Positions 9 through 61,683 of a stretch of 64,000 bases of DNA are shown piece after piece. The notes under the pieces were generated by a model. The model searched no databases and was not told the DNA's origin. It was given only the letters and a program-made list of their open reading frames with translations. How positions within the stretch are numbered: position 1 is the first letter of the stretch; each line of letters starts with the position of its first letter. The position numbers and the translations under genes are program-made. This DNA is from Anaerolineae bacterium (GTDB lineage: Bacteria > Chloroflexota > Anaerolineae > Epilineales > Epilineaceae), in NCBI GenBank assembly GCA_034432155.1, contig DAOUCP010000113.1:40-64039 (forward strand), written 5' to 3'.

Positions 9-156
9 CCGCTCGTGGCGACGGCCGCCCAGCGGCCTATCCGCCGCCCTGCTCTTCGCCGCGGCCACACAGCGGCTTATCCGCCGCGCCGCTCGTAGCG
101 CTGGCCGCCCAGCGGCCTGGCCGCCGCCCTGCTCTTAGCCGCGGCCACACAGCGGC
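9..156. repeat. GC-rich tandem repeat, 80-bp period (two ~68-bp copies, 9-76 and 89-156) made of 40-bp subunits with GCGGC..GCCGC hairpins
   Basis: ccgctcgt(g/a)gcg...gcggccacacagcggc occurs at 9-76 and 89-156; the last unit overlaps the stop of the 135-1937 gene. Confidence 0.8.
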
Positions 157-1937
157 AGGTAGAGCCGCCACGACTCTGGCATCGCCGTCGTCTCCACGGT
201 GCCGGTCGCACCGGGCGTGGCACTCGGCTCGCCGGTCACCGTTGGGCTCGGCGTTGGACCGGGCTCCCGGGTCCCAGTGGCACTCGGTGAGGGGCTGGGT
301 GTGGCGGTCGCGCTGGCATCGTGCGGCAGCGTCGCCGTTGGCGTCCGGGTTGAGCTGGCCGACGGTGTGGCGCCAACGGTCATGGTGGGCGAAGGCGTGG
401 GTGACACCTCTGTCGGCGGCGCCACGTACTCGTCCGCACCCATGTCGTAACCGGCACCTGCGGGGCGAGGATCGCCGTCGATATCGCTCGTCACGCCGGC
501 CGGGATCCCGGCATCGCGCGCGGCGGACGCGAACTGGATGTGGAAGTTGTCACTGAACGGATCGACGAACGCCGGATCGCCCCACACATTGACCGTCCCC
601 ACGCCGACGGTACCGTCACCGTCGACATCCCTGCCGTTCGCCCAGTCGCCGCTGCCCCAGAGGGTGGCCTCGAGGATCGCACGGCTGCCGAGACTGATGG
701 TGATGCCCACGGGATGGGCCACCAGGATGGTGTTCGTGAGCGCCACGTGGGCTCCCTGGTCCAGCTGGAGACCGTAGGCCGATTGGTTGGCGGCGACGGT
801 GTTGTGCACAAGAACCGCTCCGCCGGAGCCACCGCCGCGGATCCGCACGGCGGGGGCGGCAATCCCCTCTTGGGTCGTCCGGTTGTTGGCGATGATGTTG
901 TTCGTGATGGTGAACGACTTGACATCTTGCAGGTGGAGCGCGGAAGTCCTGGCACAGCCGTTGTCCCGGATGACGTTGCCCTCGAACCGCAGATCGCCAC
1001 CGAAGAAGCCCAGTGCTCCGTAGTCGTTGGCTGCCATGCTCCCGTGAAAGGTATTGCCTGTGAGATGGGCCGTCGCATTCGCAATCTGGACAGCCCCGCT
1101 GTAGCCAGCAATCACATGACGCACGCTGCGCCCTGCCCCATTGTCCCGGAAGGCATTGCCGTCGAGAGTGAGCGGCGAACGCTCGGCAGGATCGCCGATG
1201 AACCACAAGCCAGCCGCGACCCAAGCATCGTTGTCCTCGAACAGGCTGCCGACCACCGTCGCCCGCCGCGTGCCGACGATCGCCAGCCCGCCGCCAGCAC
1301 AGGTACGGGCTGCCCAGACGGCATTGGCTCGAAACACGCAGCCCTCCACCTCCAGCTCCCCGCCGTCGATGTACGCCCCGCCTCCGTGGGCGATGGTGTC
1401 GGGAATGCTGTAGACATCGATCATGTTGCTGTCGAAGACCATGTCGCGTAGTACGACTTTCGCGTCCAGCGAGTGCAGACCAGCGCCATCGTCCGTAGCA
1501 ACGCCGTGGGCAATCGTGAAGCCATCGAGGGTCACGCTGCTCGGCCCACGGATTTTCACACCCCGCCTCGTGCTCTCGCCGTCGACTATGCTCGGGTACA
1601 GCTCGGCCCTGCGCACGACCGGGCCGGTGGGTTCCCCATTCCAGCCGCCAGCCACCACGAGGCTTCGGGTGATGACCATGACCGCCTCGCCCGTGCTGGT
1701 GTACACCCCCTGGGCCAGAATGATGGTGTCGCCGTCGGTCGCCTGGCCCACGGCGGTGCGCAGGTCGCAGGGCGCCGACTGGGAGCAATCGCCGCTGCCT
1801 CCGGGGATCACAAACAGCGAGGTCGCCTTCCCGGCCTGGAGCTCGGACTGGGCCGCGACAAGCGCCATCAAGGCCACAGCCGCCACGGCGCCCGAAGCCA
1901 CGCCCGAAGCGAGCAATCGGACTCTGCCAGCGTGCAT
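135..1937 (-). CDS. Secreted right-handed parallel beta-helix (pectin-lyase-like) repeat protein with choice-of-anchor-Q-like C-terminal segment, Pro/Thr linker and LYLPL tail
   Basis: AAGGAGG RBS before ATG 1937; signal peptide; repeated F-x-x-N-x-A / I-x-x-N rungs; DPAFVD...DFHI...DIDGDPRP...YDMGADE motif; PT-rich tail ending RLYLPLCGRG. Confidence 0.8.
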   Translation of the reverse strand: MHAGRVRLLASGVASGAVAAVALMALVAAQSELQAGKATSLFVIPGGSGDCSQSAPCDLRTAVGQATDGDTIILAQGVYTSTGEAVMVITRSLVVAGGWNGEPTGPVVRRAELYPSIVDGESTRRGVKIRGPSSVTLDGFTIAHGVATDDGAGLHSLDAKVVLRDMVFDSNMIDVYSIPDTIAHGGGAYIDGGELEVEGCVFRANAVWAARTCAGGGLAIVGTRRATVVGSLFEDNDAWVAAGLWFIGDPAERSPLTLDGNAFRDNGAGRSVRHVIAGYSGAVQIANATAHLTGNTFHGSMAANDYGALGFFGGDLRFEGNVIRDNGCARTSALHLQDVKSFTITNNIIANNRTTQEGIAAPAVRIRGGGSGGAVLVHNTVAANQSAYGLQLDQGAHVALTNTILVAHPVGITISLGSRAILEATLWGSGDWANGRDVDGDGTVGVGTVNVWGDPAFVDPFSDNFHIQFASAARDAGIPAGVTSDIDGDPRPAGAGYDMGADEYVAPPTEVSPTPSPTMTVGATPSASSTRTPTATLPHDASATATPSPSPSATGTREPGPTPSPTVTGEPSATPGATGTVETTAMPESWRLYLPLCGRG

Positions 1938-16512: not shown

Positions 16513-19500
16513 CTAGAATGGCACTGGCGGTCGGTCGCGCAAGCTCCAGCGGGAGGGAGGAGTCCATGGACTCCCGACCGACGTGCCAAGTTGAGCCCCT
16601 TTCACGGACCGCGTGGTGCCGCGACCCGGAGTGCTAGCGGCAACTCCGTCGACGTGGGCGAAGTTGGCATCGGCAGAGTCTGCCCCGGCGGAAGCTGCGC
16701 CGGCAAAGGCCGGATGCGCAGCCCCTGCCCCGGCGGACACCGGGCCTGCGGACCCCGGACCGGCGGAGGTCGGACTAGCCGACCGACGTAGGGCAGCGCT
16801 GCCTGCCACCGCGGCACGGCCGGGCCCCTTGGTAGCGGCGGACAAAGGGAGCCCGAGATCGGTCGCAAACCGCGGCATCAGTCGATAGCCCCCCTCGTAG
16901 GGTCGGCGGGCAGCGTATTGGCTTACGATGCCGGCGACTGCCCAACGCTGGCCACGTCGCAGCGGCGGACGGCGCAGCTTGGTGCGCGGATCGATCCGGA
17001 TCCGGCACTCCCCTGAGCCGTCGTCCAGCCACACCGCGCTGCCGATCAGGCGCGTCACGCGACCGCGGACGACGACCAGGCGGCCCTCGAACTCCTCACC
17101 CATCGCACCGCTGGCCACCGGCACCGGCTCGATTGGCGGCCAGGCCCAGTCATCGAGCCACACTTCCGTCGAGTGGGAGAGGACCAGTTGCCGCTCGCCA
17201 TGGTAGCTACCCAGCGTACCACGGGCCGCCACCGGCGAGCCGACCGGCAGCGTTGGCAGCGCGCCATTCCGGACACCCAGGTAGAGGCGCAGACCGCTCG
17301 ATGCGTCGCCGATGTACATGGTGCGTGCACCGAACAACCCCGCAGGCGCGAGAACAACGCCCCGCAGGGCCACGGCCTGGCCATCGGCGAGCTGGCGCAC
17401 TGCCGCCAGGCCAAGATCGCGGTAGTCGGCGGCGGGCTTCGGCCCCTCGACCCGAGTGGCCAGCGGCGTCGGAGCCGCCGGCGGGGACGGTGAAGGCGCC
17501 AGCCGATTGGCCTCGCCCGGCGTCGCTTGGCAGTCCGCACGCCAGTCGCCGCCATCGGGCAGTCGACACAGCGAGCGATCGTAGCTCGGCCCGGTTTCCC
17601 AAGAGACCACGTCGGCGACCATGCCGTCGCGGCGCACGAGCCGCACCTCGTCGGCCCGGTTGCCGAGCGCCAGGCCCGACTCGGCGCGATGAATCACCCG
17701 AAAGCCCCGGGCGGCGATCACCTGGCCGTCGCGAAAGCGGAACGACCAACGTTCCGGCTCGCCCACCGTCAGGCGCCAGCCAGCCAGATCGACCGGGAAA
17801 GCCGAGCGGTTATACAGCTCGAGCCACTCGTCGGTGAAACCCGACGCTCCACTGGCATCCCAGTCCACCGTCCGCGGTGCCGGCAGTAGCTCGTTGATCA
17901 CCACCTCGGGCGCCTGCGACTGGAGCACGCCCGCCTGGCCTGGAGACGGCACCGGTTGCGGCCACCAGTCCTCGGCGCAGTCGGTGTCCTGGTCGCGAGG
18001 AATGCGCTCGATGGACCAGCCCGGCGGCACCAAAGGCACCGCCGGGTCAAAGGCATCGAGGTTGCCGCCGTAGCTGACGGCGTCGCCCACCAACCCCGTC
18101 GGGTCGCGCACCCGCACCAGGTCGCCCTTGTTGGCGAGGCCATTGCCGATCCGCCCGTCGGGCACCACCCACACCGCGGCGCCACTCGCCTCCACCTCGC
18201 GCGCCACATCGCGGGAGGCGACGACGACGAGGTAGCCTCTTGGGGGCACCACCTGATCCCCTAAGCTGTCCCAGCTCACTGCATCGCCCACCGCCCAGCC
18301 CTTCGTTCGAACGGGAGCATCCGACCGATTGAACAGCTCCAACCACTCGTATGCCGAGTCGTCGCCCGAGGCCAAGGCGTCGTACAGCACCTCGGTGACT
18401 ACCATCGGCAGGTAGGCCGGCGTCGGCACCACCGTGGCGCCAGGACCGGCGGTCGGCTGCCCTGGCCGCGTCGGCGTAGGCCGGACGGCACCAGGCGTGG
18501 TCGTAGGGCCGACCGTCCGTGTTGGCGTGGCGCGCCCCTCACCCGGTGTGGCCGAAGGGGCCTGCGTCGGGCCCGCAGGTGTGGGGGTTGGGTGGGGTGA
18601 TCCATTCGGCCCACCGGGCGAGGGCGATAGGGAATCGGTCCAGGGTCCGCTGCCGTCCGGCAGTCGGGCGTAGCTACCGTCGGGGACGGTGCGAGGGTAC
18701 TCCATCTCGTCGGCTGACGAGCCATCCGGTCGCAGGAGTCGCACCGTGTCGCGGTCGTTGTTGAGCACGATCTTGCTGTCCCGGCGAAAGAACAAGAGGT
18801 AGCCGCGGGAACGGAGCACCGTACCTTCCGGCAGGACGAAGGGTGCCGATCCACCGTCGGCGACGTCATCGAGTTGCCACCCACGAAGGTCCATGTCGAC
18901 GTCAGCCAGACTGGTGAGCTCGATCCATTCGTCGTTCGCCGAAGCGGTTCCGTCGCCGTCCCAATCGACATCGCGTGGCGCCGCCAAGAACTCATTCAGC
19001 GCCACGTCGCCAAATGCCGCTGTCGGCACGGGATGCTCGCTCGTCGGCGGCCGAGGATTGTCCCCCGCGGCCTCGCCAGGCGTTGGCGACGGCTGATCGA
19101 TCCAGTCGGCGGCCGAATCGGTGTCCGCTCCCGCGGGATACCGCTCCAGGCTGTGGCCAGCGGGCGCGCCGGGGACACTGGGATTCAGCAAGCCCACGTC
19201 ATCGCCGTAGCTCATGCCGTCCACCAGTTCGCCCAGCGCGTTCAGCAGCCGCACCTGATCGCCGCTGTTGCCCAGGCCGTTGCCGATGCGACCGTCCAGC
19301 CGAACGACCCGTCCGGCAAACCCCGGATGGAGTTCCTCGAAGCCGTCTCCAGCGGCGACGACCACGAACTCGCCGCTCGCCAGCTCGAGATCCGGCAGCG
19401 CGCTGGCAGATCGATTGTCACCGATCTGCCACCCGGACATCTTCACCGGTCCCGCGTCGGCGTTCCGCAGTTCGAGCCACTCGTAGGCTGCCTCGCTGCC

Positions 19501-44306: not shown

Positions 44307-44768
44307 AGCACTAGGTAAAGGCACTGGCTTCGCATACCACCCTGCCAGGCAGGGAGTCTAGTGGGCGCGATGCACCGGTGCCGGCTGCTTCGCCCAAGGG
44401 GCCTTGCCGAGCGTCACGTCAGCGGCTGTTCCGGCAGCGACGAGCTGCTGGTACCCTTGCTGGACCACGTCCATCGCCATGCGGCCGGCGCCGGCGTCGG
44501 GGCGTCGCACCATGGGATGGGGGAGCCAGCGGACCGAGCCCCTTGGCCCATACGGGGCTCCGGGGCATACCCTGCCGCTCAACACCGGACCGGCAGACCG
44601 GCGCCCGCTGACGAACCACTTGGAAACAGTGCTGGCCAGTGCTGTACGAGAAGCGGCCGCCGCTACGGAGGCGCGACCTACTCCGCAAGGCAGCCGCCGG
44701 CGGCGGCCAGGAGGGGACGTATGCTTCGATCTCCTGACCGTTGGATGGCAGCCGAAAGGAGGGGCCGG

Positions 44769-45629
44769 ATGCGCGCATTTCTGGTAACCCCAACCGTGGC
44801 AGCCGCTGGGCTGCTCCTTGCTGGACCCTCGGGGGCGGTGGTGGCCGAGCGACCAAGCCGGCAGGCGCCGGCGCCCGCAAATGGGCCGCTCGTTGGCCAC
44901 TGGCTCGTGGCAGTGCTTGGAAGGGCCAAGGACGTCCTCTGGTTGGCCCGTAACGCTGTTTGCTCTGGACATGGTGTCACGCAGGTTGGGGGTAAGAATC
45001 AGCCAAACGGCCGTCGTGACGTACCGCGACGGCACTTGACAAGGACAGCAGAGCCCCTTTGCCCAAGGGATGCCCTGCCCTGGCTGCTGGCGGTCCTTGT
45101 ACGATGTGGACATGGTGTCCGAGTCGGAGGGCTGGATCGTGGGCGAGCGGGGGCGATGCTCCACTACCAAGACGGCGAGTGGCAGGTGGTGACGCCGCCC
45201 CCGGATGCGGCGGAGGCGTGGACCCGCGCTATCCGCATGGTCGCTGCGATGGAAGGGTGGGCGGTTGCCGACAGGCTGTTTCTCCACTACCCCAAGGGCG
45301 CATGGGAAGGCGTCCCCAGCCCGACCACGCAGGCGCGGAAGGTCATCGACAAGGTGAGCGCCGGCGAAGGGTGGGCGGCAACGACGGAGGGCACCTTCGT
45401 CCACTACGCCGGTGGCAGCTGGCAAGTAGCCGACAGGCCGATTACGGAGGCGATCGATGACCTGGACATGGCCTCCTCCGATCGTGGCTGGGGCGCGGCC
45501 GAGTGCTCGCCCTGCAGGAACGATGGGATGCGCTACGCGGCCGGCCAAGGGACGCTCGAGCGGCACGGCTTGTACCTACCTGGGCTGAGCAAGCTTGCGC
45601 CATGGCGCGGTGCAGCGGCGAGGGATTGA
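44769..45629 (+). pseudogene. Secreted beta-propeller-like repeat protein pseudogene (two frameshifts, one nonsense codon)
   Basis: AGGAGG RBS; signal peptide; repeated (L/V)DMVS..EGW.V...(H/T)Y.DG.W units split across frames; TGA at 45037-45039; G-run shift near 45150; ends GLYLPGL. Confidence 0.7.
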
Positions 45630-45836: not shown

Positions 45837-46538
45837 TCAGGGAAGCAACGCCAGGACAGTAGCCGGCGCCCCCGTCCCACCACGCAGTCGCAACGGGCCC
45901 AGCACCACGGTGGCGCCGCGGCTCGGAAGCTCGTCCACGCGCGCCAGGTTCTCGACGACCAGGCGATCGTGGGCAAGCACCAAGCGGCTGACGGCATAGG
46001 TGCGGTCGGCCCCCACTTCGAGGCCAGCGGTGTCGGTTGCCAGCCCGGCGACCCCACGTTCCAGCAACAAGCAGGCCGCCTGTTCGCCGAAGCCCGGGAA
46101 ATGCAGGCCGCCAGAGTCGTCGAGACCCAGGTAGTCACGGGGCGCCGACCAGCGACGGTGCCAGCCAGTGTGCAGGATCACCAGCACCCCGGCCTCGACC
46201 TTCCCATGGCGAGCCTCCCAGCGAAGCAGATCATCGGCCGACAGAGCATAGTCGCTCGCCAAGGCGGCCTTCTCCTGGACGTCGATCACCACCGCCGGGT
46301 GCACGAGCCGGGCCGCTGCCAGCTCATCGATGCCCCAGCCAGCCTCCTCGTAGCTCGAGCGGGCAACGAGATGCGTGCCGGCATGTTCGCCGAACGAAAC
46401 GCGGCGCAGCCGGTAGCCGTCGGTCGCTAGCGAGGCCACCAACTCGGCGCTGAGCGCTGGATCGCCGGGCCAGTGCGGCATGCCCGGCTCGAGCACGTGG
46501 CTGAGGTAGACGATGCGCTGGTACCGAATGGTGTGCAT
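45837..46538 (-). CDS. Cyclase family protein (kynurenine formamidase-like metal-dependent hydrolase)
   Basis: P.WPGDP, GEHAGTH, VILHTGW, HFPGF, LATDT, VENLA..L, PL.L.GGTGAP. Confidence 0.88.
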   Translation of the reverse strand: MHTIRYQRIVYLSHVLEPGMPHWPGDPALSAELVASLATDGYRLRRVSFGEHAGTHLVARSSYEEAGWGIDELAAARLVHPAVVIDVQEKAALASDYALSADDLLRWEARHGKVEAGVLVILHTGWHRRWSAPRDYLGLDDSGGLHFPGFGEQAACLLLERGVAGLATDTAGLEVGADRTYAVSRLVLAHDRLVVENLARVDELPSRGATVVLGPLRLRGGTGAPATVLALLP

Positions 46539-46716
46539 GTGGAGCTCCTTCGAGCACGTGGCAAGGCGGCGAGAGATCTCGTGGCGGCCGTCGTTCCGGC
46601 GGGCGCAACAGCCGGTTTACGTGGCGATTGTGGAACCGAACGGCTCCGCGAGGCAACGAGGCGGTCGGGGCATGCAGAGGACCGCCAGGGCGCCTGCTAT
46701 AATTCAGCTCCAGCCG

Positions 46717-47877
46717 ATGGCGCTCGAGACGAGTTCCCTGCCCGTACCTGCCCTTGCGCGCCCGCCGCATCAGCGTGTGGGCCGTTTCTTGTTGGCCGTG
46801 GCGCTGCTTCTGATCCTGGCAGAGCTGGCAGCCGTGGCAGCCCTGATCGCCTTCACCCTCTTTCGGCTGACCGACGGCCACGCCTCGCCCTCTGGGATGC
46901 GCCGCCGACCAGCGTTCCTGATGCCCCTGCCGGGGAGCAACCCGGACCGGGTCGAGATCAACGTGTGGGACCATCACGGGCCTTTGAACGTGCTCCTCAT
47001 TGGGCTCGACGCCGACGATTGCGCCGTCCAGGGCAGTACCACCATGGCACGACGCGCAGATACGATCATCGTCGTCCGCATCGATCCCCAGACCAAACGC
47101 GCCGCCATGCTGTCGATCCCCCGCGACCTCTATGTCGCTATTCCCGGCCACGGCGCACGCAAGATCAACACCGCGCATGTCCACGGGGAGCTGGATCGGA
47201 GCCTACCCGGCGGCGGACCACAGCTCTTGGCCGAAACGATCGAGGCCAACTTCGATATCCCGATCCATCGGTACGCCCGCGTGGATTTCGCCGGCTTCGA
47301 GCGGATCATCGATGCCGTGGGCGGCATCGACATCGTCGTGCCGCCGTCACCGCGCGATCCGCGGATTGGCCTCTTGGACAGCGAGTATCCGGACGGCCAT
47401 TGCGGCACCATCACTGTCTGGTTCCCACCGGGGCCCCAACACCTTGATGGCCAGCGTGCCTTACAGTACGCCCGATCCCGCAAGTCGACGAGCGATTTCG
47501 ATCGCTCGCGGCGCCAGATGCAGGTTCTGCTGGCGCTGCGGCAACGCGCACTAAGCCTGGGTGCCGTTCGACACTTGCCCGAACTGGTGCCAGCTCTGAT
47601 GGACGCGGTGGATACCGACTTCACAGCGGCGGAACTCATCTCCCTGGCTCGGCTCCTGCCTGCGGTTGGCGCCGACGCGCCCACCTACTCCCTGGACGAG
47701 CAATCGCTGTACGCCGAGATGCTGGTCATCGACGGCGTTCCGCAGGCCACCTTGCGGCCCGACCCTAGCGCCCTGGCTGTCGTTCTCCACAGCTTCATGG
47801 CGCTGCAGCCGCCCACCCCCACACCCCAGCCGAGCGGTACGTTGGTGCCGAGCGTGCCAGGCGTTCCGACACCGTAA
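46717..47877 (+). CDS. LCP (LytR-CpsA-Psr) family cell-wall glycopolymer transferase
   Basis: TM anchor; NVLLIGLD, RADTII, MLSIPRDLYV, KIN, VDFAGF..IIDAVGG, ALQYARSR, DFDR.RRQ; TGcTATAAT at 46695-46703. Confidence 0.92.
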   Translation: MALETSSLPVPALARPPHQRVGRFLLAVALLLILAELAAVAALIAFTLFRLTDGHASPSGMRRRPAFLMPLPGSNPDRVEINVWDHHGPLNVLLIGLDADDCAVQGSTTMARRADTIIVVRIDPQTKRAAMLSIPRDLYVAIPGHGARKINTAHVHGELDRSLPGGGPQLLAETIEANFDIPIHRYARVDFAGFERIIDAVGGIDIVVPPSPRDPRIGLLDSEYPDGHCGTITVWFPPGPQHLDGQRALQYARSRKSTSDFDRSRRQMQVLLALRQRALSLGAVRHLPELVPALMDAVDTDFTAAELISLARLLPAVGADAPTYSLDEQSLYAEMLVIDGVPQATLRPDPSALAVVLHSFMALQPPTPTPQPSGTLVPSVPGVPTP

Positions 47878-49210: not shown

Positions 49211-49239
49211 TTGACTCACCAGATGGTTAGTGCTATATT
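49211..49239 (+). promoter_or_regulatory. Near-consensus sigma70 promoter of the LysM gene (TTGACT-17-TATATT, extended TG)
   Basis: -35 at 49211-49216, -10 at 49234-49239. Confidence 0.75.
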
Positions 49240-49324
49240 AAGGCGGCTCTGCTCGCGAGGCGGTTGGAGGTCATGGCGCAACGCTCGTGGCCGCTGCCAC
49301 CGCCAACAGATGGAGGGAAGCATC

Positions 49325-49840
49325 ATGGCCACGCGAGGCCGCTTGGTTCTACTTGTCGTCCTGTTGACCACGGTTGTGCTGGCGGCAGGTCAGGCCAACA
49401 CCGTCAGCGCCCAGGGCGGCATGCACTGCGTGCGTCCGGGCGAGACCTTGTACCGCATCGGCGCCATGTACAACGTGTCGCCCTACCTGATCGCCCACGT
49501 CAACGGCATTCCCAACCCAGCGTACATCCGGGCTGGTTCGTGCCTGCGCATTCCGCCGGCCTTCGGCACGTTCGGCTGTCAGTACCCGGGTTGCCAACCC
49601 AAGCCCGTCATACAGCCTTGCTATCCGCAGCCGTGCCAGCCAAAGCCGGTTGTGCAGCCTTGCCGGCCGCCAGCATGCGGCGGTCCCTCGTATACGCGCT
49701 ACTGCGTGCGGCCCTGCGACACCCTATTTGCCATCGGCCGACGCTTCGGCGTGTCGCCTTGGGCAATCGCCAGCCTGAACGGCTTGACCAATCCGAACTA
49801 CATCCGCGTTGGTCAGTGCTTGCTGATCCCTACTCGCTAG
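49325..49840 (+). CDS. Secreted two-LysM protein with Cys/Pro/Gln-rich linker
   Basis: GGAGG RBS; signal peptide; V.PG(C)(E/D)TL..I...(Y/F).VS...IA..NG..NP.YI..G..L.IP twice; 11 Cys. Confidence 0.9.
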   Translation: MATRGRLVLLVVLLTTVVLAAGQANTVSAQGGMHCVRPGETLYRIGAMYNVSPYLIAHVNGIPNPAYIRAGSCLRIPPAFGTFGCQYPGCQPKPVIQPCYPQPCQPKPVVQPCRPPACGGPSYTRYCVRPCDTLFAIGRRFGVSPWAIASLNGLTNPNYIRVGQCLLIPTR

Positions 49841-49867: not shown

Positions 49868-51622
49868 CTAGCCGCGGCCCAGGTAGGGAAGGACAACGGT
49901 GGCTTGACCATCCGGCGTGGTCCGGGTGGCTAGACCGGCAGTCGAAGTCGCCAACGGCGTTGCGGCCGGCGTGGCCGTTGCCGAGCCCGTGACCGCTCGG
50001 GTAGCCGTCGCCGTCGCGGTGACCGAGGGCGAGGGTCTCCCTGTTGCCGTTGGCTCGGGCGTCGGCGGCTCCCCGCTTGGCCGACGGAGCGCCCAGTAGC
50101 ACATGGCGTCCTCACCCCAGCGGCCCCAGTCGGCAATGTCCAGGAGCGTTGTCTCGCACACCAGCAAGGCCAACGGGCCGTCGGCAGTTACGTCGAGCTG
50201 GCTGTCCTCGGGTAGGCTCGCGGCGGGCCGCACAACGGCGCTGGCCCCGGCGGCGAGCGTCAGACGGTCGCTATGCAAGGCCGCACCCTCGACGGTGCGG
50301 TAGGCGAACACCGCCTCAACCGGTACGCCACCCGGATTGAGCACCGCCAACTGGGTGCGGCGCCCGCGGTCCGCAACCCGCACCCTCGGCACCGAGAATC
50401 CCTGCCCCAGATCGGCCTCGCCGAAGGCGTTGTAAGCGCTGACCGAATGGACCACCTCGCGCTCTCGAGCCTCATCCTGAACGACTGCCAGCAGCGGACC
50501 ATCCGCGGCAATGACCGCGTGGCCCTCGAAGCCACGGTTCAGCCTCGTACCGATGGGCAAGCCCGTGGGCGGGGCCAAGCCGCGGTTCAGGCGCGCCAGG
50601 TCGACGTACGTCGCTCCGCGGGGCTCGAGGCGCAAGGGCTGTTCGATCGCTGGTTCCGATGCCGACACGCCATGCGCTCGATAGGCGATGGAGGCGTTCA
50701 CCGCCTTGGTGAGGCTTGGATTGGCGATGGCGATCAGCGAGTTGCCAAGATAGTTGGCACGCACGGAGGGCAGGAGCAGCCGTGTCGAGGCTCGAGCCAC
50801 CGGCCGCGCGACGAAGGCCGACGTGCCGTCGCCAGCCATCTCATCGCCAAACGCCATCACAGCCAATGGTTTCTGGGCGGTGATGCGCGTCGCCAGGATC
50901 GACCCACCATCCCCAGCGTTGATCGGCATGTCCCCAAAGTTCAGATCGTCGAACCAGGTGTCGTACGAGATGGTTTGGCCTCCCGGAATGAACGTGCTGA
51001 ACGAAACCATTAGTTCGCCGCTCGAGTTATCGAACAGCTGCACGTCAACTTTGTTCTCTGAGGAAGACTCGTCTGTGTTCTGAAAGTAGAGAATGCTCGT
51101 GTGAGAGTACACATCCCGAACCGTGAGGGGCAGGATGAGGCTGGTGCCTGGCTCACAGGCTTCATACGCCGCGGCGGCACCGTTTGGCCATTCCGTCCGG
51201 CTCAGAAAGCCGATGTAGCCACGACTGGCGATGGTGGTGGCATAGCGGCCGCGCGGCACCTGGACCAGAGATCGCAGGGCCAGGCGGTCGGCCGTGTCCG
51301 GCCCAACCGTCGGTAGGACGGTGATGTCGTTCTCGTACGCCGGCCGGAGGCGAACTCGCAGTGCGTGCGCTGAAGGCAGCCAGTTGCGGATATCGATGGT
51401 CGAAATGCCGAAGCCCTCCATTCCTGCCAGCCGCTGGCCCGTCGCCACAGCCGTGCTACCACGGGATTGCACGATCGGCAGATAGGTGCTCTCGCCCCCG
51501 GCTGCGCCACGCCCCAGCACCCGCGGCGAGGTCCATGCCAAGCAGAAGCCCACCGTCCAGATGCCGGCCAGGCTGGCACGGACGATGAGCCGCACGCGAT
51601 GGTGAAGAGAAAGCGGTGGCAC
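49868..51622 (-). CDS. Secreted hypothetical protein with repeated beta-sandwich modules and Pro/Thr tail
   Basis: AGGAAGGAG RBS before GTG 51622; signal peptide; repeated L.LP......(T/S).L...N units; YLPIVQSR near N-terminus; VVLPYLGRG C-terminus. Confidence 0.75.
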   Translation of the reverse strand: MPPLSLHHRVRLIVRASLAGIWTVGFCLAWTSPRVLGRGAAGGESTYLPIVQSRGSTAVATGQRLAGMEGFGISTIDIRNWLPSAHALRVRLRPAYENDITVLPTVGPDTADRLALRSLVQVPRGRYATTIASRGYIGFLSRTEWPNGAAAAYEACEPGTSLILPLTVRDVYSHTSILYFQNTDESSSENKVDVQLFDNSSGELMVSFSTFIPGGQTISYDTWFDDLNFGDMPINAGDGGSILATRITAQKPLAVMAFGDEMAGDGTSAFVARPVARASTRLLLPSVRANYLGNSLIAIANPSLTKAVNASIAYRAHGVSASEPAIEQPLRLEPRGATYVDLARLNRGLAPPTGLPIGTRLNRGFEGHAVIAADGPLLAVVQDEAREREVVHSVSAYNAFGEADLGQGFSVPRVRVADRGRRTQLAVLNPGGVPVEAVFAYRTVEGAALHSDRLTLAAGASAVVRPAASLPEDSQLDVTADGPLALLVCETTLLDIADWGRWGEDAMCYWALRRPSGEPPTPEPTATGRPSPSVTATATATRAVTGSATATPAATPLATSTAGLATRTTPDGQATVVLPYLGRG

Positions 51623-51758: not shown

Positions 51759-54700
51759 CTATTGGCCACCGACCTCAAGGAGGAAGCGGTCGCGATCGGC
51801 GGACCCGGGAGGACCGGTGACCGGCAACCGCACACCGGTAGCCAGATCGTACCAGCCGATCGCCAGCCGGAGGCGGCCGTGCGGCGGATCGCCGATCGCG
51901 CCAGCGGATGGTTGCAGCACCACCGCGATGTCGAGCGGCTGGTTCAGCGGCCAGGCGCTCGTGGGCAGCGCACCATCGAATGGCTGGCCGTCGTGTTGGG
52001 CAACGAGAACTTCGCGGCCGTCCTCGCCGAGCCGCAACAGGTGTACGAACAGGGTATAGTCGCGCCGCGGCTGGGCGGTCGCCATCCAGCGCAGTGTCAC
52101 GGTGAGCGGCCGGCCGGGGCCCACAGTCCGCGTCGGCGACAGGGCGTAGCCTTGCAGGGCCAGCTCGCTGCCAAAGTGCGCACTGGCCTTGTGGTCGATC
52201 GGCGCCAGACGCTCGTGCACGACAGCGATGCTGCGCCTGAATTGGTCGGCGACGGCCGCGCCATGCGCGTCAAGGACGGGCAGCAAGCGACGCGTGGCCT
52301 CGTCGTACAGGCTGACCTGTAACCAGTAGCCGCCCGGCGTGAGGTCGGTCGGCACCGAGAGCGGCATGAGATCGTGGAACTGCTCCCCAGGGCGCCAGCC
52401 GGTCGTCGGCCGTGTCCCGTGAAGGATCGGTCGATCCTCGTTACTCCGCCGGTCAAGCCCGGGATCGAGCAACTGAATGGAGGCGCGAACGCGGTGAGTC
52501 GGCACGGCGTAGCTCTCCCAGACAAGACCGACCAGCACCCGCCGGCCGACGCAAAGGCTTTGGGGCACGGCCAGCCCGACGAGGCGGATGCCGTCGGCAA
52601 AAGTAACCGGCGCGGCGAGGCCGGGCGTGCCAACGCGGACATGAATCGGCGGTAGCACGAACGGGCGGGGGTGCACCAGAATCGACTTCGCCGCCCGCTG
52701 GGGCAACAGACGCCCGTCCTCTCGGAGCGAGAGCTGCATGGGTACCTTGTCCCCAGCCTTGCGCTCGAGCTCGTGGGGCACGCGAAACGTGTGCCGCGTC
52801 GTCACGACTTGGCCAGCCCTGAGATTGGCGAAGGCGCAGCCCGTGTCTCGCCCGAGAGGCCCAGCGTCGACGGTCAGGGTCACTGGCCGCTCCGGCGTAG
52901 CCGACGACAGCCACCGCCAGTGCAGGGCGAGCCGCACCTCGTCCCCGGGACGCACCGATGGCGGCGCCTCGAAGCCCAACAGGCGCGCACGGCCCGGCCA
53001 CACGGCCTGCACGGGCCGCGCGCGGCGCACGGAACTCTCGTCGGCGGATGCGATGCCGGCCGCCGAGTCGCGCAGGGTGTCCTCGGCCTGCCCAGCGCCG
53101 GGCCCGCCGAGCGCTACCGCCAGACCCTGGGGCACTCTGCCGACCGCGTCGAACGGTCGGCTGGAGACCTCGACAAGCGGGCCGATCGACCGTGTGTAGA
53201 AACCGTCTGCCGGGTCGGGCTCGACACCCCACAGGTAGACCGGACCCCCGCTGGCCGGCAGACCGTCCAGGATGCGCCGCGCCGAGGGGGTGTCGGCGTA
53301 CATGATCCGCACGTCCGGCCGCCGGCCCTCGATGAGCTGCGGATACAGAAGCGCCGAGCCCAGCTGCGGCTCCACGACGATCGAGGCGCCAGCGGGTAGG
53401 CCAGCGTCCAGGATCCTCCGGCCCAACGCGGCCGGCGGCCAGCCCTGGCTGCGATCGCACGCCGGTCCGTTGTTCCACAGCTGGCACACGGGCAGCAGCA
53501 ACGCCAACGTCCAGTAGACCGCCGGCAGGCAGTGTCGCGGGGCGGTGTCGGGCGCCAGCCTGGCGCTGCCGGCGGCGGCTTGGTATCCTGCGGCACCCAG
53601 CGACAGCGCCGTCCGCGCCCTGCGGAGCGACCCGCCGAGCCGGTCTTCCACCGCGGCCATGCCGGCCGCGACCCACACACCGACGATGAGATGCGAGGGC
53701 AGCAGGGTCACCCATCCGTCCCACGCGTTGTAACCCGCGCGAAACGTCACATGAAGCAACCATACCATGCCCAGCCACATCGCCCACTGCGTGCGCCTGG
53801 CCAGAAGCCACACCCAGCCGAGGGCGGCTAGCAGCAGGAACGGCGCGCCGAACTGCGACGTGAGCTCGTACCGAAGGAGCACGAGTAGCCGGGTCGGATC
53901 CTCGAGCGGCCAGGTGGGGCGAAAGAGGCCCGTGTACGGGCTGGCCGTCGCATAGCCCAGCACGTCGGCCACCCGAGCCGGCCGCCCGCTTACCGCCGGC
54001 CAGCGCGCGAAGAGGTAGAGGGTCGGCGCCAAGCCCGCGAGAAGCGCCATCGCCGGCCCCACCAGGCGGCGGGGGCTAACGAGCAACCTCGGCTCGTTGA
54101 CGAGAACGGCCCCGGCCAGGGCGGGCGCGAGAAACACAATCGTGGCGTGGTGCGTCAAACCCAGGCCGAAGGCAAACACCGCAGCGAGCAGCCACCTCGT
54201 AGCGCCCCTGCCGGATGCGCCCGACCTCACGGCAGAGGCCCACCGCATCGCGCCCAAGAGCACGACCGCCACCAGCAGCACGTGCGTTGCATACACCTCC
54301 GTGATGACGGCAAGCGACCAGAAGGCGGGCGTGAAGGCCAAGGTGAGTGCCGCGGCCAGCCCGGCAGACGTCTTGCCCGTCAGGTGGGCGCCGATGAGGG
54401 CCGTTACGCCCACGGCCACGGCTGCGGAACACGCCGACAGGAGGTTCATGCGATAAGCGATGTCACGCACCGGTAGGAGCGTGAATAGCTTGCCGAGCAT
54501 CGTGTAGAGCGGATAGCCGGGTGGATGGGCGAGCGTGAGCTTGTGGGCGACGACTTGGAACTCCAAGCTGTCCGCCACGTCGGTGGTCGGCGACAAGGTG
54601 CGCAGATAGATAGCGAGCACGACGAGGGCCGAAGTCACGGCGATCGGCGTCGCCCCATGCCTGAGCCGCCGCCGATCCATCCACAGAGCGAGCACCCCAA

Positions 54701-54827
54701 GCAGCGACACGCTTAGAATTGCCGCTCCCAGCCACGGTCGCACCTCCGGCTGTCTCGCATAGTGAAGGTTTAGCAGCAGCGGGACCAGCAAGCAGACGGA
54801 CCTCGGCACGGCTCGCCGGGCGGTCAC
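51759..54827 (-). CDS. DUF2723 (TMEM260-like) GT-C membrane glycosyltransferase with extracytoplasmic C-terminal beta domains; start approximate
   Basis: DSLEF...AHPPGYPLY..LGKLF..NLLSA..A.ITEVY..H..GL.HH; many TM helices; C-terminal GYAL..L.W..DYTLFVHL..DGQP..PTSAW..G.YD. Confidence 0.88.
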   Translation of the reverse strand: MTARRAVPRSVCLLVPLLLNLHYARQPEVRPWLGAAILSVSLLGVLALWMDRRRLRHGATPIAVTSALVVLAIYLRTLSPTTDVADSLEFQVVAHKLTLAHPPGYPLYTMLGKLFTLLPVRDIAYRMNLLSACSAAVAVGVTALIGAHLTGKTSAGLAAALTLAFTPAFWSLAVITEVYATHVLLVAVVLLGAMRWASAVRSGASGRGATRWLLAAVFAFGLGLTHHATIVFLAPALAGAVLVNEPRLLVSPRRLVGPAMALLAGLAPTLYLFARWPAVSGRPARVADVLGYATASPYTGLFRPTWPLEDPTRLLVLLRYELTSQFGAPFLLLAALGWVWLLARRTQWAMWLGMVWLLHVTFRAGYNAWDGWVTLLPSHLIVGVWVAAGMAAVEDRLGGSLRRARTALSLGAAGYQAAAGSARLAPDTAPRHCLPAVYWTLALLLPVCQLWNNGPACDRSQGWPPAALGRRILDAGLPAGASIVVEPQLGSALLYPQLIEGRRPDVRIMYADTPSARRILDGLPASGGPVYLWGVEPDPADGFYTRSIGPLVEVSSRPFDAVGRVPQGLAVALGGPGAGQAEDTLRDSAAGIASADESSVRRARPVQAVWPGRARLLGFEAPPSVRPGDEVRLALHWRWLSSATPERPVTLTVDAGPLGRDTGCAFANLRAGQVVTTRHTFRVPHELERKAGDKVPMQLSLREDGRLLPQRAAKSILVHPRPFVLPPIHVRVGTPGLAAPVTFADGIRLVGLAVPQSLCVGRRVLVGLVWESYAVPTHRVRASIQLLDPGLDRRSNEDRPILHGTRPTTGWRPGEQFHDLMPLSVPTDLTPGGYWLQVSLYDEATRRLLPVLDAHGAAVADQFRRSIAVVHERLAPIDHKASAHFGSELALQGYALSPTRTVGPGRPLTVTLRWMATAQPRRDYTLFVHLLRLGEDGREVLVAQHDGQPFDGALPTSAWPLNQPLDIAVVLQPSAGAIGDPPHGRLRLAIGWYDLATGVRLPVTGPPGSADRDRFLLEVGGQ

Positions 54828-59308: not shown

Positions 59309-59334
59309 AGAAGGGCCGCCTCCCGAAGAAGCTG

Positions 59335-61683
59335 TCAGTCGCGCTGAGCCACCGGCACGTACAGATACCACACCGCACCCGCTGGATCGACCGTGCCGTA
59401 TGCGAAGAGCCCCGCCGACGTGGCCAACCAGACGGTCCCATCCACGCCGATCGCCAGGTCGCGGACCAGCGCCCCCTCGGGCAAGCCGATCTCGGCGGCT
59501 TGGAACGCGTCGATCCACAAGCCGGCCGGGTTCTGGGCCGCCAGGATGCCACGGGCCGAGGCAAGCCACCGCTCGCCGTCCGGGCCATAGGCGGCCGCTG
59601 CCACCCAGTCATCGCCCACGCCGTTTGGGAAGAGCGGCGAGTTCGACAGGTCGATCACCGCTGCCCAGGTCTCGCCGGCGAACTGATTCTCGTACACGTG
59701 GGTGCTCACGGTGCGGCGGCTCGCCGGATCGAGGCTGTGGCGCTCCACCCACGTGAAGACCACCGGCCGACCGTCCGGCCGCAAGCAAGCCGCGGTTGCG
59801 TGTCCGCCGGTGCGGTAGCGCGGCGACATGGCGACGTCCAGAAGAACGGGGAAGGGCACGCCACTTACCTGTGGCAGTGGATAGAGGGCCCGATGCCCCA
59901 CAGCCCAACCACCGCTCGGTGCGCCGGCGGGTGCTGGGTTGGCGAGCAGCCGGACGGACGGCACACCCCGCCTCAGGGCCGTGGGATCGACATCCAAGAT
60001 CAGGTCGCCTTGCAGGTGCCGGCCGGCCACATAGGGCCGCAGGCCAGCGATCCTGCAGGGGGCGATGCCGGTACAGCGGACCGTAGTCTCGACTGGCACC
60101 CGTGCGATGCCGGTCCGATCCACGAGCACCTCTTGGTGCAGTCGGACGCGACCGTCCGGTGACCACTCGTCGGCTCCCTCGACGCGCCAGCTCTGACCAT
60201 CGAAGTATTCGGCACCGATCCAAACATCGCCTCGCTCGTTGAATGCCCAGAAGCCCTCCAGGACCCCCAAGCGCCGAACGTCCTGGCTCTGCCGCATCAC
60301 CGCCTGGCGCAAGTCGGCATAGAGGCGCCACGGGCCGTGCGCCAGGGCGGCTACCACGCCATCCGGCCGGCGTTCGCCAAGGTAGACTCGCACCCACGCC
60401 GTGCCGTCGGCATCGGTGCTCACGCGCCGGACATCGTCGGACGCGAGCGGGGCGTTGGCACGGCTAAAATGCCGCCAGCTTCGACCAGGAAGACGTGTGG
60501 GGAAGGCCGTCGGCATCGGTGATGGCATGACGGCAGTCGGTGTGCCAGTTGGTGGGGCGGTGGGCGAGGCCGTCGGCGATCGTGTTCCCGTAGGCGTCGA
60601 CGTGGCGGTCGCTACCATGGCCGTGCCCGTCAAGGTGCTGGTTGGAGTCCACAGTCCGGTGGCCGTCGCCGTACCGGGCTGGGTGGGCGTGGGCAGCACC
60701 GGTTGCGGCATGGCGAGAGCGATCCGCTGTGCCTTCCAGGAAGCAGTGAAGACGCCGAGTAGCTGCAGGTCCGCTGGATCGCTGGCATCCACAACCTCGA
60801 GCCCGCCATCCAAGCGGGCCACGAAGACGCGCTGCCCCTCGCCGGCAACGTCCACGAAGTCGCCCGGAAGAGAGCCGATCACAGAGGGCATCACCGGATC
60901 GCTGTCGTCCACGGCGCTCAGACCTCCCGGCTCGGAGCCGCTTGCCGTGGCCGCGACGTACGTCATGTCGGCAACGGCTACGGCGCGCATGTCGCCTGAC
61001 AGCGCGATCCCGCCGAGGCCAGCAGGCTGCGGCGGCTGCCGAATGTCGGCGATGGACAGGCCATGGATGGGCAGCCGACCCACGAGCAACAGCCATCGGT
61101 CGCGGATGGCCAGGTCCTCTGGGCGGCCGAGGAACAGACCCACTTGTTCGGGCTGGCTCGCATCCGCTACCCGGACCACCACCACCCCGAGAGCCCCGGC
61201 GAGGTAAGCGTAATAGCCGTCCGCCACCACCGCCGTGGCACCGAGCTGCAGCGTTCCCAGCACGGCCGGGGCCGTCGGGTCGGCCACATCGACCACGTGG
61301 AAGGACGTGGGGCTGACGAGGTACGCACGATCGCCAAACACGGCGACATCGGTGGCGTCTTCGGCGAGCGAACCGACGAGTTGCGGCGCCGTCGGATCGG
61401 TGACATCCACGATGGCCATACCGGCAGCGCCACGCGCGAGGTAGGCGTGCCCTTCCTGCACGACGACCGCCCGGGTGCCCGTCAGATCAGCGACGGCGCC
61501 CACCTCCACCGGTGCGGCGGGGTCGGATACGTCTACCACGCGCAGCCCATCCTCGCCAGCAGCCACAAACACGTGCGAAACAGGCTGTGCCTGACGCGAG
61601 GGCAACGCCTCGAAGAGGCCGATGGCGGCCACGCCACCGACCACCACCAGCGCGACGCGATGCGCGACACTTAGATCGTTCAC
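59335..61683 (-). CDS. Secreted LVIVD-repeat beta-propeller protein with Pro/Thr linker and second propeller-like (regulator-propeller) domain
   Basis: GLRVVDVSDP..P, GMAIVDVTDP, SFHVVDVADP etc.; LASDDVR..STDADG..W and VRDLAIG.DG.VWLAT..GL; ends YLYVPVAQRD. Confidence 0.85.
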   Translation of the reverse strand: MNDLSVAHRVALVVVGGVAAIGLFEALPSRQAQPVSHVFVAAGEDGLRVVDVSDPAAPVEVGAVADLTGTRAVVVQEGHAYLARGAAGMAIVDVTDPTAPQLVGSLAEDATDVAVFGDRAYLVSPTSFHVVDVADPTAPAVLGTLQLGATAVVADGYYAYLAGALGVVVVRVADASQPEQVGLFLGRPEDLAIRDRWLLLVGRLPIHGLSIADIRQPPQPAGLGGIALSGDMRAVAVADMTYVAATASGSEPGGLSAVDDSDPVMPSVIGSLPGDFVDVAGEGQRVFVARLDGGLEVVDASDPADLQLLGVFTASWKAQRIALAMPQPVLPTPTQPGTATATGLWTPTSTLTGTAMVATATSTPTGTRSPTASPTAPPTGTPTAVMPSPMPTAFPTRLPGRSWRHFSRANAPLASDDVRRVSTDADGTAWVRVYLGERRPDGVVAALAHGPWRLYADLRQAVMRQSQDVRRLGVLEGFWAFNERGDVWIGAEYFDGQSWRVEGADEWSPDGRVRLHQEVLVDRTGIARVPVETTVRCTGIAPCRIAGLRPYVAGRHLQGDLILDVDPTALRRGVPSVRLLANPAPAGAPSGGWAVGHRALYPLPQVSGVPFPVLLDVAMSPRYRTGGHATAACLRPDGRPVVFTWVERHSLDPASRRTVSTHVYENQFAGETWAAVIDLSNSPLFPNGVGDDWVAAAAYGPDGERWLASARGILAAQNPAGLWIDAFQAAEIGLPEGALVRDLAIGVDGTVWLATSAGLFAYGTVDPAGAVWYLYVPVAQRD

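Follow-up and report, generated by a model that had tools for sequence, protein, structure and literature searches.

The YLP-box of Chloroflexota proteins is already represented in NCBIfam by two models, NF050076 (sort_motif_YLP, 11 positions, cut-off 15 bits) and NF053834 (ultrashort_CTERM, 10 positions, cut-off 10 bits), which bear the label "YLP-box putative sorting motif" and have no mechanism attached; a literature search found no publications on the motif. We analyzed a 64,000-nucleotide stretch of an Anaerolineae bacterium contig (hereafter the window), in which three C-terminal tails and two internal motifs are almost certainly diverged copies of this box. The initial annotation had mentioned similar tails in Chloroflexota exported proteins, with no established function; the existing models show that the motif is already recognised. 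The box is a discrete unit of 10–11 residues with the consensus [R/Y/H/K]-[V/I/L]-Y-L-P-L-V-L-[R/K]-N-[Y/H]-P. The window copies represent the same peptide as the models, and the tails occupy homologous positions in the same families, but the model names refer to a C-terminal motif, and two of the window copies lie inside their proteins, upstream of a vWA domain. Canonical tails of homologues pass NF050076 (15.7 and 15.2 bits) and NF053834 (14.6 and 14.3 bits). All window copies fall under both cut-offs: tail 1 reached 12.6 bits against NF050076, and for the other copies no NCBIfam YLP-box match was reported at E ≤ 10. The window tails are worn, with Val for Tyr, Val for Leu, and Gly at hydrophobic positions.

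Tail 1, WRLYLPLCGRG (138–170, minus strand), ends a beta-helix/choice-of-anchor-Q protein (gene 135–1937). About 105 of the 120 listed beta-helix homologues end in xYLPLVx[RK]NYP (typically IYLPLVLRNYP) at the same position. The proximal half of tail 1 is canonical, and its distal half, P-L-C-G-R-G plus the stop, lies inside a tandem array at 9–156 (40-bp unit × 3.4, or 80 bp × 1.9; no strand), whose gene-nearest unit encodes the final six codons and the stop. Because the window tails are worn and tail 1 is half repeat-encoded, some copies may have lost function. A linker of 83 Pro/Thr/Ser/Ala residues (171–419, minus strand) separates tail 1 from the DEYV end of the choice-of-anchor-Q domain. 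The initial statement that most carriers have Pro/Thr linkers is true of four of the five copies in the window but not in general, since most of the 120 listed beta-helix homologues lack a linker and place the box 5–10 residues after the folded domain (DIGADE).

The second tail, ATVVLPYLGRG (49871–49903, minus strand), ends a multi-beta-sandwich surface protein (gene 49868–51622) after a 57-residue Pro/Thr/Ala linker (49904–50074, minus strand), and homologues end in LFLPLLVRG, VYLPLAHR, AYLPIAHRW, VYLPWAWRP, and AYLPLAYK. The third tail, AVWYLYVPVAQRD (59338–59376, minus strand), ends an LVIVD-repeat protein (gene 59335–61683) and has no Pro/Thr linker. Its orthologue in a relative ends in WQLHLPIARRD and a 31%-identical homologue in TIYLPRAEKK, while in three distant homologues (L085, L086, and L088) the type IX secretion (T9SS) domain model TIGR04183 matches at the tail position with 40.6, 36.7, and 42 bits. 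The three C-terminal motifs first reported, YLPLCGRG, VLPYLGRG, and YVPVAQRD, are all real, and each ends in Arg, one further residue, and the stop.

All seven strings listed in the initial annotation are present at their given places; five are instances of one real motif and two are unsupported. ESTYLPIVQSR near the N-terminus of the 49868–51622 product (51461–51493, minus strand) was rejected as a YLP-box. The segment is instead the first beta strand of the folded domain and has a family-specific motif, [YF]LP[DS]LQ[ST][DR], that is polar where the box is hydrophobic or basic, and AlphaFold2 predicted a paired strand at residues 44–53 (block pLDDT 66–73). The other string, GLYLPGLSK, is found in a frameshifted beta-propeller-like gene, the 44769 pseudogene, 11 residues short of its stop (YLPGLSK, 45573–45593, plus strand). 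Its profile score of 7.9 is no better than chance, given that an unrelated LTD-domain strand in the window scored 9.0 and that about 2–3 chance positions with such scores are expected per window; it is indeterminate between a worn box and chance. With both instances unsupported, the window itself shows no N-terminal box position.

The two internal boxes, KYLPILFRNWPP and RYLPYLLRLWPP, were correctly placed from the start in the two vWA proteins, in Pro/Thr linkers upstream of the C-terminal vWA domain (Pfam VWA, 1.1e-35 in vWA protein 1 and 3.1e-30 in vWA protein 2). In vWA protein 1 (gene 30243–32294), RAKYLPILFRNWPP (30846–30887, minus strand) has Pro/Thr linkers on both flanks, and a short Pro/Thr spacer and the Cys-bracketed domain come after it (together 30243–30845, minus strand; PTKC...DTSTS...YIPCPGEP-end). 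In the paralogous vWA protein 2 (gene 35839–37899), IDRYLPYLLRLWPP (36460–36501, minus strand) is likewise followed by a Pro/Thr spacer and a Cys-bracketed C-terminal vWA domain (35839–36459, minus strand; FIPCP-end). The box of vWA protein 1 is unchanged in an 82%-identical relative. In the homologue alignment the box is conserved in 26 of 31 vWA homologues, with near-invariant Tyr and Pro, and the two Cys of the vWA domain are invariant. Disulfide-bracketed vWA domains such as A1 and A3 of von Willebrand factor are similar to this MIDAS-bearing domain, in which one Cys immediately precedes strand 1 and the other is C-terminal, but the window-type domain serves as a mobile end-module at the C-terminus of bacterial surface proteins, nearly always with a YLP-box ahead at fixed spacing.

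Box–vWA cassettes were found in 161 proteins. The spacing in compact cassettes is rigid (YLP-x7-Cys-x13-DxSxS), with seven residues from Pro to the first Cys in 98 of the 161 and 14 from Cys to the MIDAS Asp in 128, and the box core lies just upstream of the module in 97 of 128 representative vWA-module proteins, most others having near-variants. This fixed spacing could reflect structural coupling between box and vWA domain in these cassettes, which counts against a docking function. In its full form, such coupling would make the box the N-terminal strand or junction of the following domain, above all of the Cys-stapled vWA end-module, and free tails would be remnants after module loss or caps for the preceding domain; the look-alike YLPIVQS strand, predicted to pair inside its own domain, is consistent with this. 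We consider it unlikely, however, because tails are far commoner than cassettes and experience strong purifying selection in families without a vWA domain, and because the elements before boxes are of unrelated kinds (beta-helix, Ig-like domains, disordered Pro/Thr linkers). Domains other than vWA (CBM-like and NHL) also follow boxes. Furthermore, the window vWA proteins have a spacer of 10–14 Pro/Thr-rich residues between box and domain, and AlphaFold2 gave a pLDDT below 50 over the box of vWA protein 1 (residues 465–490), with no cis contact.

The frequency of the box was assessed in 1.1 Mb of Chloroflexota DNA, with loci picked via one box-bearing family and genes called crudely as longest ORFs. 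Sixty-eight of 766 ORFs ended in a YLP-box, compared to three of 3394 off-frame ORFs; a reversed version of the motif ended none of the 766. With the beta-helix cluster set aside, the box ended 12 of 660 ORFs, where 0.22 were expected. In the window, a relaxed tail was found in 3 of 54 ORFs but in none of the 301 off-frame ORFs, and at the off-frame rate of all loci (3/3394) the probability of at least three in 54 is 1.7e-5. A spurious signal, due to chance or to the composition of GC-rich coding sequence high in Pro, Leu, and Arg, would fit the relaxed pattern also matching off-frame window sequence (7 of 12 matches) and the chance-level scores of the weak instances (N-terminal, pseudogene, and LTD-domain strand). 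For five of the seven instances it is refuted by the above probability, by the absence of reversed motifs, and by the retention of the box in homologues while linkers diverge, so that its overall likelihood is negligible. Codon use further argues against chance: Leu is encoded by 5–6 codons, Pro by 4, and Arg by 6, with synonymous variation at every box position, indicating that the box is selected at the protein level.

Signal-peptide-like N-termini, called by a crude heuristic in these loci selected via one box-bearing family, occurred in 50 of 62 box carriers and in 159 of 659 other proteins (odds ratio 13, p = 1e-18), in agreement with the earlier expectation that the motif is commoner on exported proteins. 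The window carriers resemble adhesins or enzymes of the cell surface (Beta_helix, LVIVD, and VWA), and "choice-of-anchor" models match two of them, one above its cut-off (Choice_anch_Q, 26.6 bits, cut-off 25) and one below. At the sequence level, the proposal of a lineage-specific tag on exported proteins holds, based on this enrichment, the codon-level selection, and the position shared with the T9SS domain.

Including the identity of the box, we tentatively favor the reading that it is a post-Sec retention tag recognized in trans, most likely by non-covalent docking; sorting, S-layer docking, and processing are putative alternative roles. The carrier would leave the cytoplasm by the Sec route, directed by its N-terminal signal peptide, and the mature protein would retain the box as a hydrophobic island that is exposed and unstructured, usually terminal in the chain and frequently on a Pro/Thr tether. 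A putative envelope component would then read the box in trans and hold the protein at the cell surface, probably by accommodating the peptide in a groove or on a sheet edge. Being self-contained, the box would allow a further disulfide-stapled domain (vWA, CBM-like, or NHL) to come directly after it, as in the two window vWA proteins. That it is a discrete unit is indicated by the tails: 66 of 69 have 0 to 3 residues after [R/K] and thus end at or before Pro+7, the same point at which the first Cys of the vWA cassette sits. Recognition in trans is consistent with the AlphaFold2 models, whose strand and helix assignments leave the internal box and the 49868 tail disordered and outside folded domains (tail plus linker, residues 522–584, pLDDT <50). 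Chemistry on a side chain is disfavored since Phe, His, or Trp takes the place of Tyr in ~15% of boxes and the basic position varies between R and K (64:35); no side chain of the box is both invariant and reactive.

Some 70% of boxes lie right at the C-terminal end, a placement seen more typically in sorting signals that undergo processing than in peptides that dock freely. A covalent sorting signal is accordingly a possible but less probable explanation, in which the box would be recognized by a peptidase or transpeptidase outside the cytoplasm (sortase-like, PorU/C25-like, or PBP-like) that would cut in or just after it, release a very short peptide or the whole downstream domain, and attach the newly formed C-terminus to a polymer of the wall or envelope. 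The sharp limit of at most three residues after [R/K], the label given by the NCBI curators, the position equivalent to a domain that PorU removes in Bacteroidota homologues, and the order of YLP signature, hydrophobic stretch, and basic residue, a miniature echo of tripartite sorting signals, are consistent with it. However, there is no membrane helix to keep the substrate near a membrane enzyme, and obligatory C-terminal cleavage is disfavored by the 13 of 69 tails that have nothing after [R/K], by the boxes found between domains, and by L040, where a canonical box lies ~45 residues past the signal anchor and cutting would free the entire passenger. Cleavage at internal boxes would similarly lose the conserved, disulfide-stapled vWA domain. 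All-against-all clustering of 818 ORFs from 83 loci revealed no conserved neighbor of box genes, and therein neither a candidate enzyme tied to the loci nor a receptor or partner was identified.

Alternatively, boxes on different surface proteins might pair with one another or attach to a shared fibre or sheath protein, and thereby cross-link the exported proteins of these filamentous bacteria into a matrix with no dedicated receptor. With its core V/I-Y-L-P-L-V-L, the box is a short hydrophobic stretch with many beta-branched residues, carried on flexible tethers; dozens of unrelated proteins in each genome sample bear it, and some proteins, such as L031, have two. Nonetheless, Pro and a flanking basic residue disfavor amyloid-like stacking, and the box has an invariant Pro and such a residue, making self-association improbable.

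Compared to known systems, the favored docking tag shares features with several. The T9SS type A sorting domain (TIGR04183) processed by PorU occupies, in LVIVD homologues, the position of the window's YLP-type tail, but it is a folded beta-sandwich of ~70–80 residues, removed by cleavage in a diderm envelope, whereas the YLP-box has ~10 residues and is predicted to be disordered. LPXTG signals of sortases are likewise C-terminal on Sec-exported surface proteins, often with a Pro/Thr-rich spacer ahead, and have an L-P core. As the initial annotation had recognized, the YLP-box is neither a membrane anchor nor LPXTG: it lacks the Thr-Gly scissile pair and the hydrophobic membrane helix, and also a multi-residue basic tail, as the chain stops 0–3 residues after one basic residue; its internal copies, moreover, precede whole folded domains. 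The PEP-CTERM/exosortase, PGF-CTERM/archaeosortase, and GlyGly-CTERM/rhombosortase systems have the same order of signature, hydrophobic, and basic parts, which the box shows in miniature, but they require a full transmembrane helix in place of its 3–4 hydrophobic residues. SLH, LysM, GW, CWB2, and dockerin–cohesin modules resemble the proposed retention by envelope binding and are flexible in chain position; they are folded modules of 40–70 or more residues with known ligands, whereas the YLP-box is a linear peptide.

The YLP-box, a peptide of about ten residues on exported proteins, was defined operationally from a logo of 154 boxes as the core aromatic-L-P-h-h-x-[R/K], with the chain ending 0–4 residues past the basic residue. 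All seven strings listed in the initial annotation were found in the window sequence, which has a GC content of 61–70% and whose nearest public relatives are Chloroflexota. The proposal that they represent one motif in seven places held for three C-terminal tails and two internal boxes, and was unsupported for an N-terminal TYLPIVQSR and for GLYLPGLSK. The three tails, all on the reverse strand, are YLPLCGR-G-stop in a beta-helix gene (135–1937), VLPYLGR-G-stop in gene 49868–51622, and YVPVAQR-D-stop in an LVIVD-repeat gene (59335–61683). They share one register, with a single residue between Arg and the stop codon, and all fit the core and end of the definition, with V replacing Y in one and L in another. 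The internal boxes KYLPILFRNWPP (30846–30887) and RYLPYLLRLWPP (36460–36501) lie in Pro/Thr linkers of the paralogous vWA proteins 1 (gene 30243–32294, reverse strand) and 2 (gene 35839–37899, reverse strand), and both are followed by a short Pro/Thr spacer and then a C-terminal vWA domain. In all five carriers a basic residue precedes a hydrophobic stretch at the N-terminus, and the carriers were counted as Sec-exported.

For the tails and the internal boxes alike, homologues from other genomes have a box in the equivalent place, and this conservation places five of the seven instances beyond chance. For the beta-helix protein, whose best named match was from Candidatus Thermoflexus japonica, ~105 of the best 120 homologues end in ...[V/I]YLPL[V/I/A][L/V/M][R/K]N[Y/H]P, in most cases directly past DIGADE, with which the choice-of-anchor-Q domain closes. 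For the 49868 protein, homologues terminate in LFLPLLVRG, VYLPLAHR, AYLPIAHRW, VYLPWAWRP, AYLPLAYK or IYLPINRRGLE. The LVIVD orthologue ends in WQLHLPIARRD, and a 31%-identical homologue in TIYLPRAEKK. Of 31 full-length vWA homologues, 26 have the internal box, whose Tyr and Pro hardly vary. A 222-kb contig of a Chloroflexota relative (GCA_900174595.1) carries orthologues of window genes at 66–82% identity in conserved order, and there the vWA internal box is identical while its flanking linkers differ. In general, the tails of the window and of this relative have diverged from the consensus, and the two internal boxes are canonical and identical in both genomes.

The tail of the beta-helix protein has a further peculiarity. 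Its distal half, P-L-C-G-R-G-TAA (138–156; stop 135–137), lies inside a tandem array at 9–156, which can be read as a 40-bp unit repeated 3.4 times at 78% matches or as 80 bp repeated 1.9 times at 91%. The array unit closest to the gene covers its final six codons and the stop, and the 19-mer GCCGCTGTGTGGCCGCGGC occurs exactly twice in the window, both times within the array. Such an origin explains the odd Cys-Gly in this tail, which we treat as a putative tag whose distal half is repeat-encoded.

The two unsupported strings were compared with true boxes using a position-specific profile made from 141 tails outside the window. TYLPIVQSR (51461–51493, profile score 8.1), which had been taken as an N-terminal occurrence of the tag, is instead a family-specific motif in a beta strand of a folded domain. 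Its counterparts in homologues are LFLPSLQSD, LFLPDLQTD, LYLPDLQTD and AFFPDAHTN, with polar residues at positions where the box requires hydrophobic or basic ones, and in the AlphaFold2 model of the 49868 protein (pTM 0.78) residues 44–53 form a paired beta strand of the first beta-sandwich. GLYLPGLSK (45573–45593) scored 7.9, at the level of chance, and lies 11 residues ahead of the stop of a frameshifted gene. That gene (44361–45629, forward strand) encodes GW...HY.GG.W repeats resembling a beta-propeller, with blades continuing in another frame; the frameshift reflects either decay of a surface-protein gene or an indel in the assembly. Of 351,000 positions, about 50 outside boxes scored above the lowest true box, so that two to three chance look-alikes are expected per window. 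One such string, TPAYLPMVVT, scored 9.0, higher than either unsupported string, in a strand of a protein with four lamin-tail domains (LTD, 6.6e-57; 16513–19785, reverse strand). The third of these domains starts with PTPAYLPMVVTEV directly past a Pro/Thr linker and thereby mimics a YLP-box; we rejected it as the usual opening strand of an LTD repeat (RPMVVINEV and PEVVINEL are its counterparts in other repeats). Because the LTD strand outscores a true internal box (4.4), the profile score alone is insufficient, and context and homologue conservation are required. A true N-terminal box was found in another Chloroflexota genome (L040, 933–2330), where a canonical LYLPLVYKAPP lies ~45 residues past the signal anchor and precedes a folded domain; the window has no such N-terminal box.

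Within the window, a relaxed form of the tail ended 3 of 54 longest-ORF genes and 0 of 301 off-frame ORFs. Using the off-frame tail rate over all fetched sequence (3/3394), the probability of at least three in 54 is 1.7e-5. The wider sample (1.12 Mb) combined the window and two loci of the relative with 80 loci surrounding beta-helix homologues. Judged by record title, these 80 were nearly all from Chloroflexota (Thermoflexales, Caldilineales, Anaerolineales, and unclassified Anaerolineae), with no phylum stated for some few. A box ended 68 of 766 complete longest ORFs within four residues past [R/K], compared with 0/766 for the reversed motif and 3/3394 for off-frame ORFs; these counts refer to loci picked via a box-bearing family and to genes called as longest ORFs. 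After the large beta-helix cluster was removed, the box still ended 12 of 660 unrelated ORFs, against 0.22 predicted from the internal match rate. Every synonymous codon was used at the box positions, indicating selection on the peptide and not on the DNA. The tag was also enriched on export-like proteins in these loci: an export-like N-terminus was present in 50 of 62 tail-bearing ORFs and 159 of 659 others (odds ratio 13, p = 1e-18), as judged by a crude, approximate heuristic that asked for a basic residue ahead of 12 hydrophobic residues in an uncharged run.

The logo of 154 distinct C-terminal boxes, numbered from Tyr as 0, has R, Y, H or K at −2 and V, I or L at −1, followed by Y (85%, otherwise F, H or W) at 0, L (96%) at +1, P at +2, L (74%) at +3, V (68%) at +4, L, V or M at +5, R (64%) or K (35%) at +6, N (35%) at +7, Y or H at +8, and P at +9, after which the chain ends. 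Zero, one, two, and three residues past [R/K] were found in 13, 16, 19, and 18 tails, respectively, and more than three in three tails, which gives the box a sharp downstream edge at Pro+7. This edge coincides exactly with the start of the next domain where one exists. A search of the box-plus-vWA segment of the window against 1.84 billion representative proteins placed the box core just upstream of a C-terminal vWA module in 97 of 128 matches, and most of the others had near-variants. Among 161 cassettes, the first Cys stood at Pro+7 in 98 and the MIDAS Asp 14 residues past the Cys in 128; the two vWA proteins of the window belong to a minority class with a 10–14-residue Pro/Thr spacer inserted between box and Cys. 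The vWA end-module itself (30243–30845 and 35839–36459, reverse strand; 161 proteins) has two invariant Cys (...C-x13-DxSxS ... [I/L]PC[P/R]-end) and is joined to a wide range of unrelated passengers (NHL and SMP-30-like ones among them); a YLP-box nearly always precedes it at a constant distance. Behind other internal boxes come an NHL propeller, a second beta-helix passenger or, as a weak match, a CBM4/9-like domain of 166 residues. The box thus forms a discrete unit, 10–11 residues long, that usually ends the chain and can take a disulfide-stapled domain directly behind it. Two fetched sequences look like fusions of box-tagged proteins: L031 (1433–5125) has one internal box past DLGADE and another near its end, and L036 (1–3171) has a box mid-linker between two passengers, the second a beta-helix without its own signal peptide.

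AlphaFold2 modelled vWA protein 1 from a 31-sequence alignment with a mean pLDDT of 80, and both vWA domains and a beta-sandwich were confident. Residues 465–490, covering the box and its linkers, had pLDDT <50 and lay in no predicted folded domain. Residues 522–584 of the 49868 protein, covering its Pro/Thr linker and tail, also had pLDDT <50. A fold search with the latter protein returned generic tandem beta-sandwich matches alone (TM-scores ≤0.16 over the whole model). Both models leave the box disordered and so predict an exposed linear peptide, which fits recognition in trans. A purely structural role in cis is suggested solely by the rigid spacing in the compact vWA cassettes; docking of the box on the vWA or another domain was unsupported by the model of the window vWA protein, and we consider such a role improbable.

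Statements on the function of the YLP-box are drawn from sequence throughout. The 154-box logo has no invariant reactive side chain at any position, and side-chain chemistry (Tyr glycosylation or a Lys isopeptide) is unlikely given the interchange of Y/F/H/W and of R/K. Anchoring at the membrane interface is likewise unlikely, the gain for YLPLVLR being ~1 kcal/mol by our own Wimley-White interfacial estimate. With side-chain chemistry unlikely and a membrane anchor excluded by length, the reader would be a protein that either binds the peptide or acts on it as a peptidase/transpeptidase. We tentatively favour non-covalent docking, at somewhat less than an even chance, because many tails have no residues past [R/K] to act as a leaving group, cleavage at internal boxes would discard conserved, stapled domains, at least one canonical box lies N-terminal to its passenger, and the box sits on flexible tethers where it is predicted to be free. 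Covalent sorting is unlikely by comparison but a serious rival, given the strong preference of the box for the C-terminus and the fact that its positional analogues, LPXTG and the T9SS CTD, are all processed. In a bolder reading, the box could be the uncleaved, position-tolerant docking strand of a Chloroflexota surface-display network that dispenses with membrane anchors, with a box-travelling module such as the vWA end-module as its reader, a proposal we regard as a long shot. On this view, strand exchange would let enzymes and adhesins with box tails attach non-covalently to hub proteins that bear the vWA module; in this possible reader the box is held seven residues from the first Cys.

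The carriers are surrounded by genes with housekeeping or cell-wall roles (Obg, sigma-70, ETF, acyl-CoA dehydrogenase, LysM, LytR-CpsA-Psr, and M23 peptidase), with a heliorhodopsin among the neighbours in the relative. No candidate reader linked to these genes was found, and no conserved neighbour emerged when 818 ORFs of the 83 loci were clustered by all-against-all BLASTP. The recurrent clusters either owed their coherence to response-regulator receiver or ABC ATPase domains or consisted of housekeeping enzymes, and were rejected as partners. Between the tagged genes lie a LytR-CpsA-Psr protein with a Pro/Thr-rich C-terminus (46513–47877, forward strand) and a LysM protein (49211–49840, forward strand), both conserved in the relative. 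LytR-CpsA-Psr and LysM proteins are markers of cell-wall glycopolymer attachment. Adjoining the 49868 gene, whose Pro/Thr linker has 57 residues, is a gene for a large membrane protein (51759–54767, reverse strand) with a TMEM260-like/PMT_2 protein O-mannosyltransferase domain (2.1e-32), which may O-glycosylate the Pro/Thr linkers. PMT_2-type genes recur in some fetched loci; in the syntenic relative, gene calling put none between the matching neighbours.

Chloroflexota are abundant members of communities in wastewater, hot springs, soil, and the subsurface, and to our knowledge the build of their envelope and their display of surface proteins are poorly understood. In the surface-protein loci sampled, about a tenth of the ORFs bear the same 10-residue peptide, a frequency that points to a possible major route of protein sorting or retention without a membrane-spanning signal. 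The motif has already been flagged by NCBI curators, so that the find itself is not new. NCBIfam release 20 contains NF050076 (sort_motif_YLP; 11 positions, cut-off 15 bits) and NF053834 (ultrashort_CTERM; 10 positions, 10 bits), both named "YLP-box putative sorting motif-containing protein", and a literature search found no paper with the name "YLP-box" or any of six literal tail strings. Canonical homologue tails passed both models (15.7 and 15.2 bits for NF050076, 14.6 and 14.3 bits for NF053834). With NF050076, the beta-helix tail of the window reached 12.6 bits, over model positions 1–8 alone and below the cut-off, and the other six window peptides had no match (E ≤ 10); with NF053834, no window peptide matched. 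The motif is therefore already curated, and the window tags are diverged members of it that the models would miss, lineage-specific variants of relevance to annotation. The window also presents the box as a discrete unit tolerating a folded domain directly behind it, and adds predicted structures in which it is disordered and outside any folded domain.

The tags differ from the established C-terminal signals. LPXTG/sortase substrates need a pentapeptide, a hydrophobic transmembrane segment and a basic tail, whereas the window tails lack T-G and stop one residue past R, in agreement with the initial annotation, which had set them apart from LPxTG and rightly judged them too short for a transmembrane anchor. 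PEP-CTERM, PGF-CTERM, and GlyGly-CTERM have a C-terminal transmembrane helix, unlike the box with its three to four hydrophobic residues past Pro. The carriers are typical surface cargo: right-handed beta-helix with choice-of-anchor-Q, LVIVD-repeat, vWA adhesin-like, and tandem beta-sandwich proteins. Choice-of-anchor type Q (NF041518) scored 26.6 on the beta-helix protein against a cut-off of 25, and type B (TIGR04312) gave a partial match of 28.9 on the LVIVD protein against a cut-off of 100. The T9SS type A sorting domain (TIGR04183, ~72 positions) matched none of the window carriers, but LVIVD homologues from other metagenomes (L085, 127–2295; L086, 2–1258; L088, 1–1701) end in it, at 40.6, 36.7, and 42 bits (cut-off 23). 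In these distant homologues the T9SS CTD holds the position taken by a YLP-type tail in the window protein and its nearer homologues, a concrete anchor swap in which the C-terminal sorting device of one passenger differs between lineages. Surface cargo and this T9SS-equivalent position make a sorting or retention tag a sensible reading of the YLP-box, and the suggestion of a lineage-specific sorting, S-layer-docking or processing signal is partly supported. If it does mark such a route, the mechanism would be unlike those of sortase, exosortase, rhombosortase, and T9SS.
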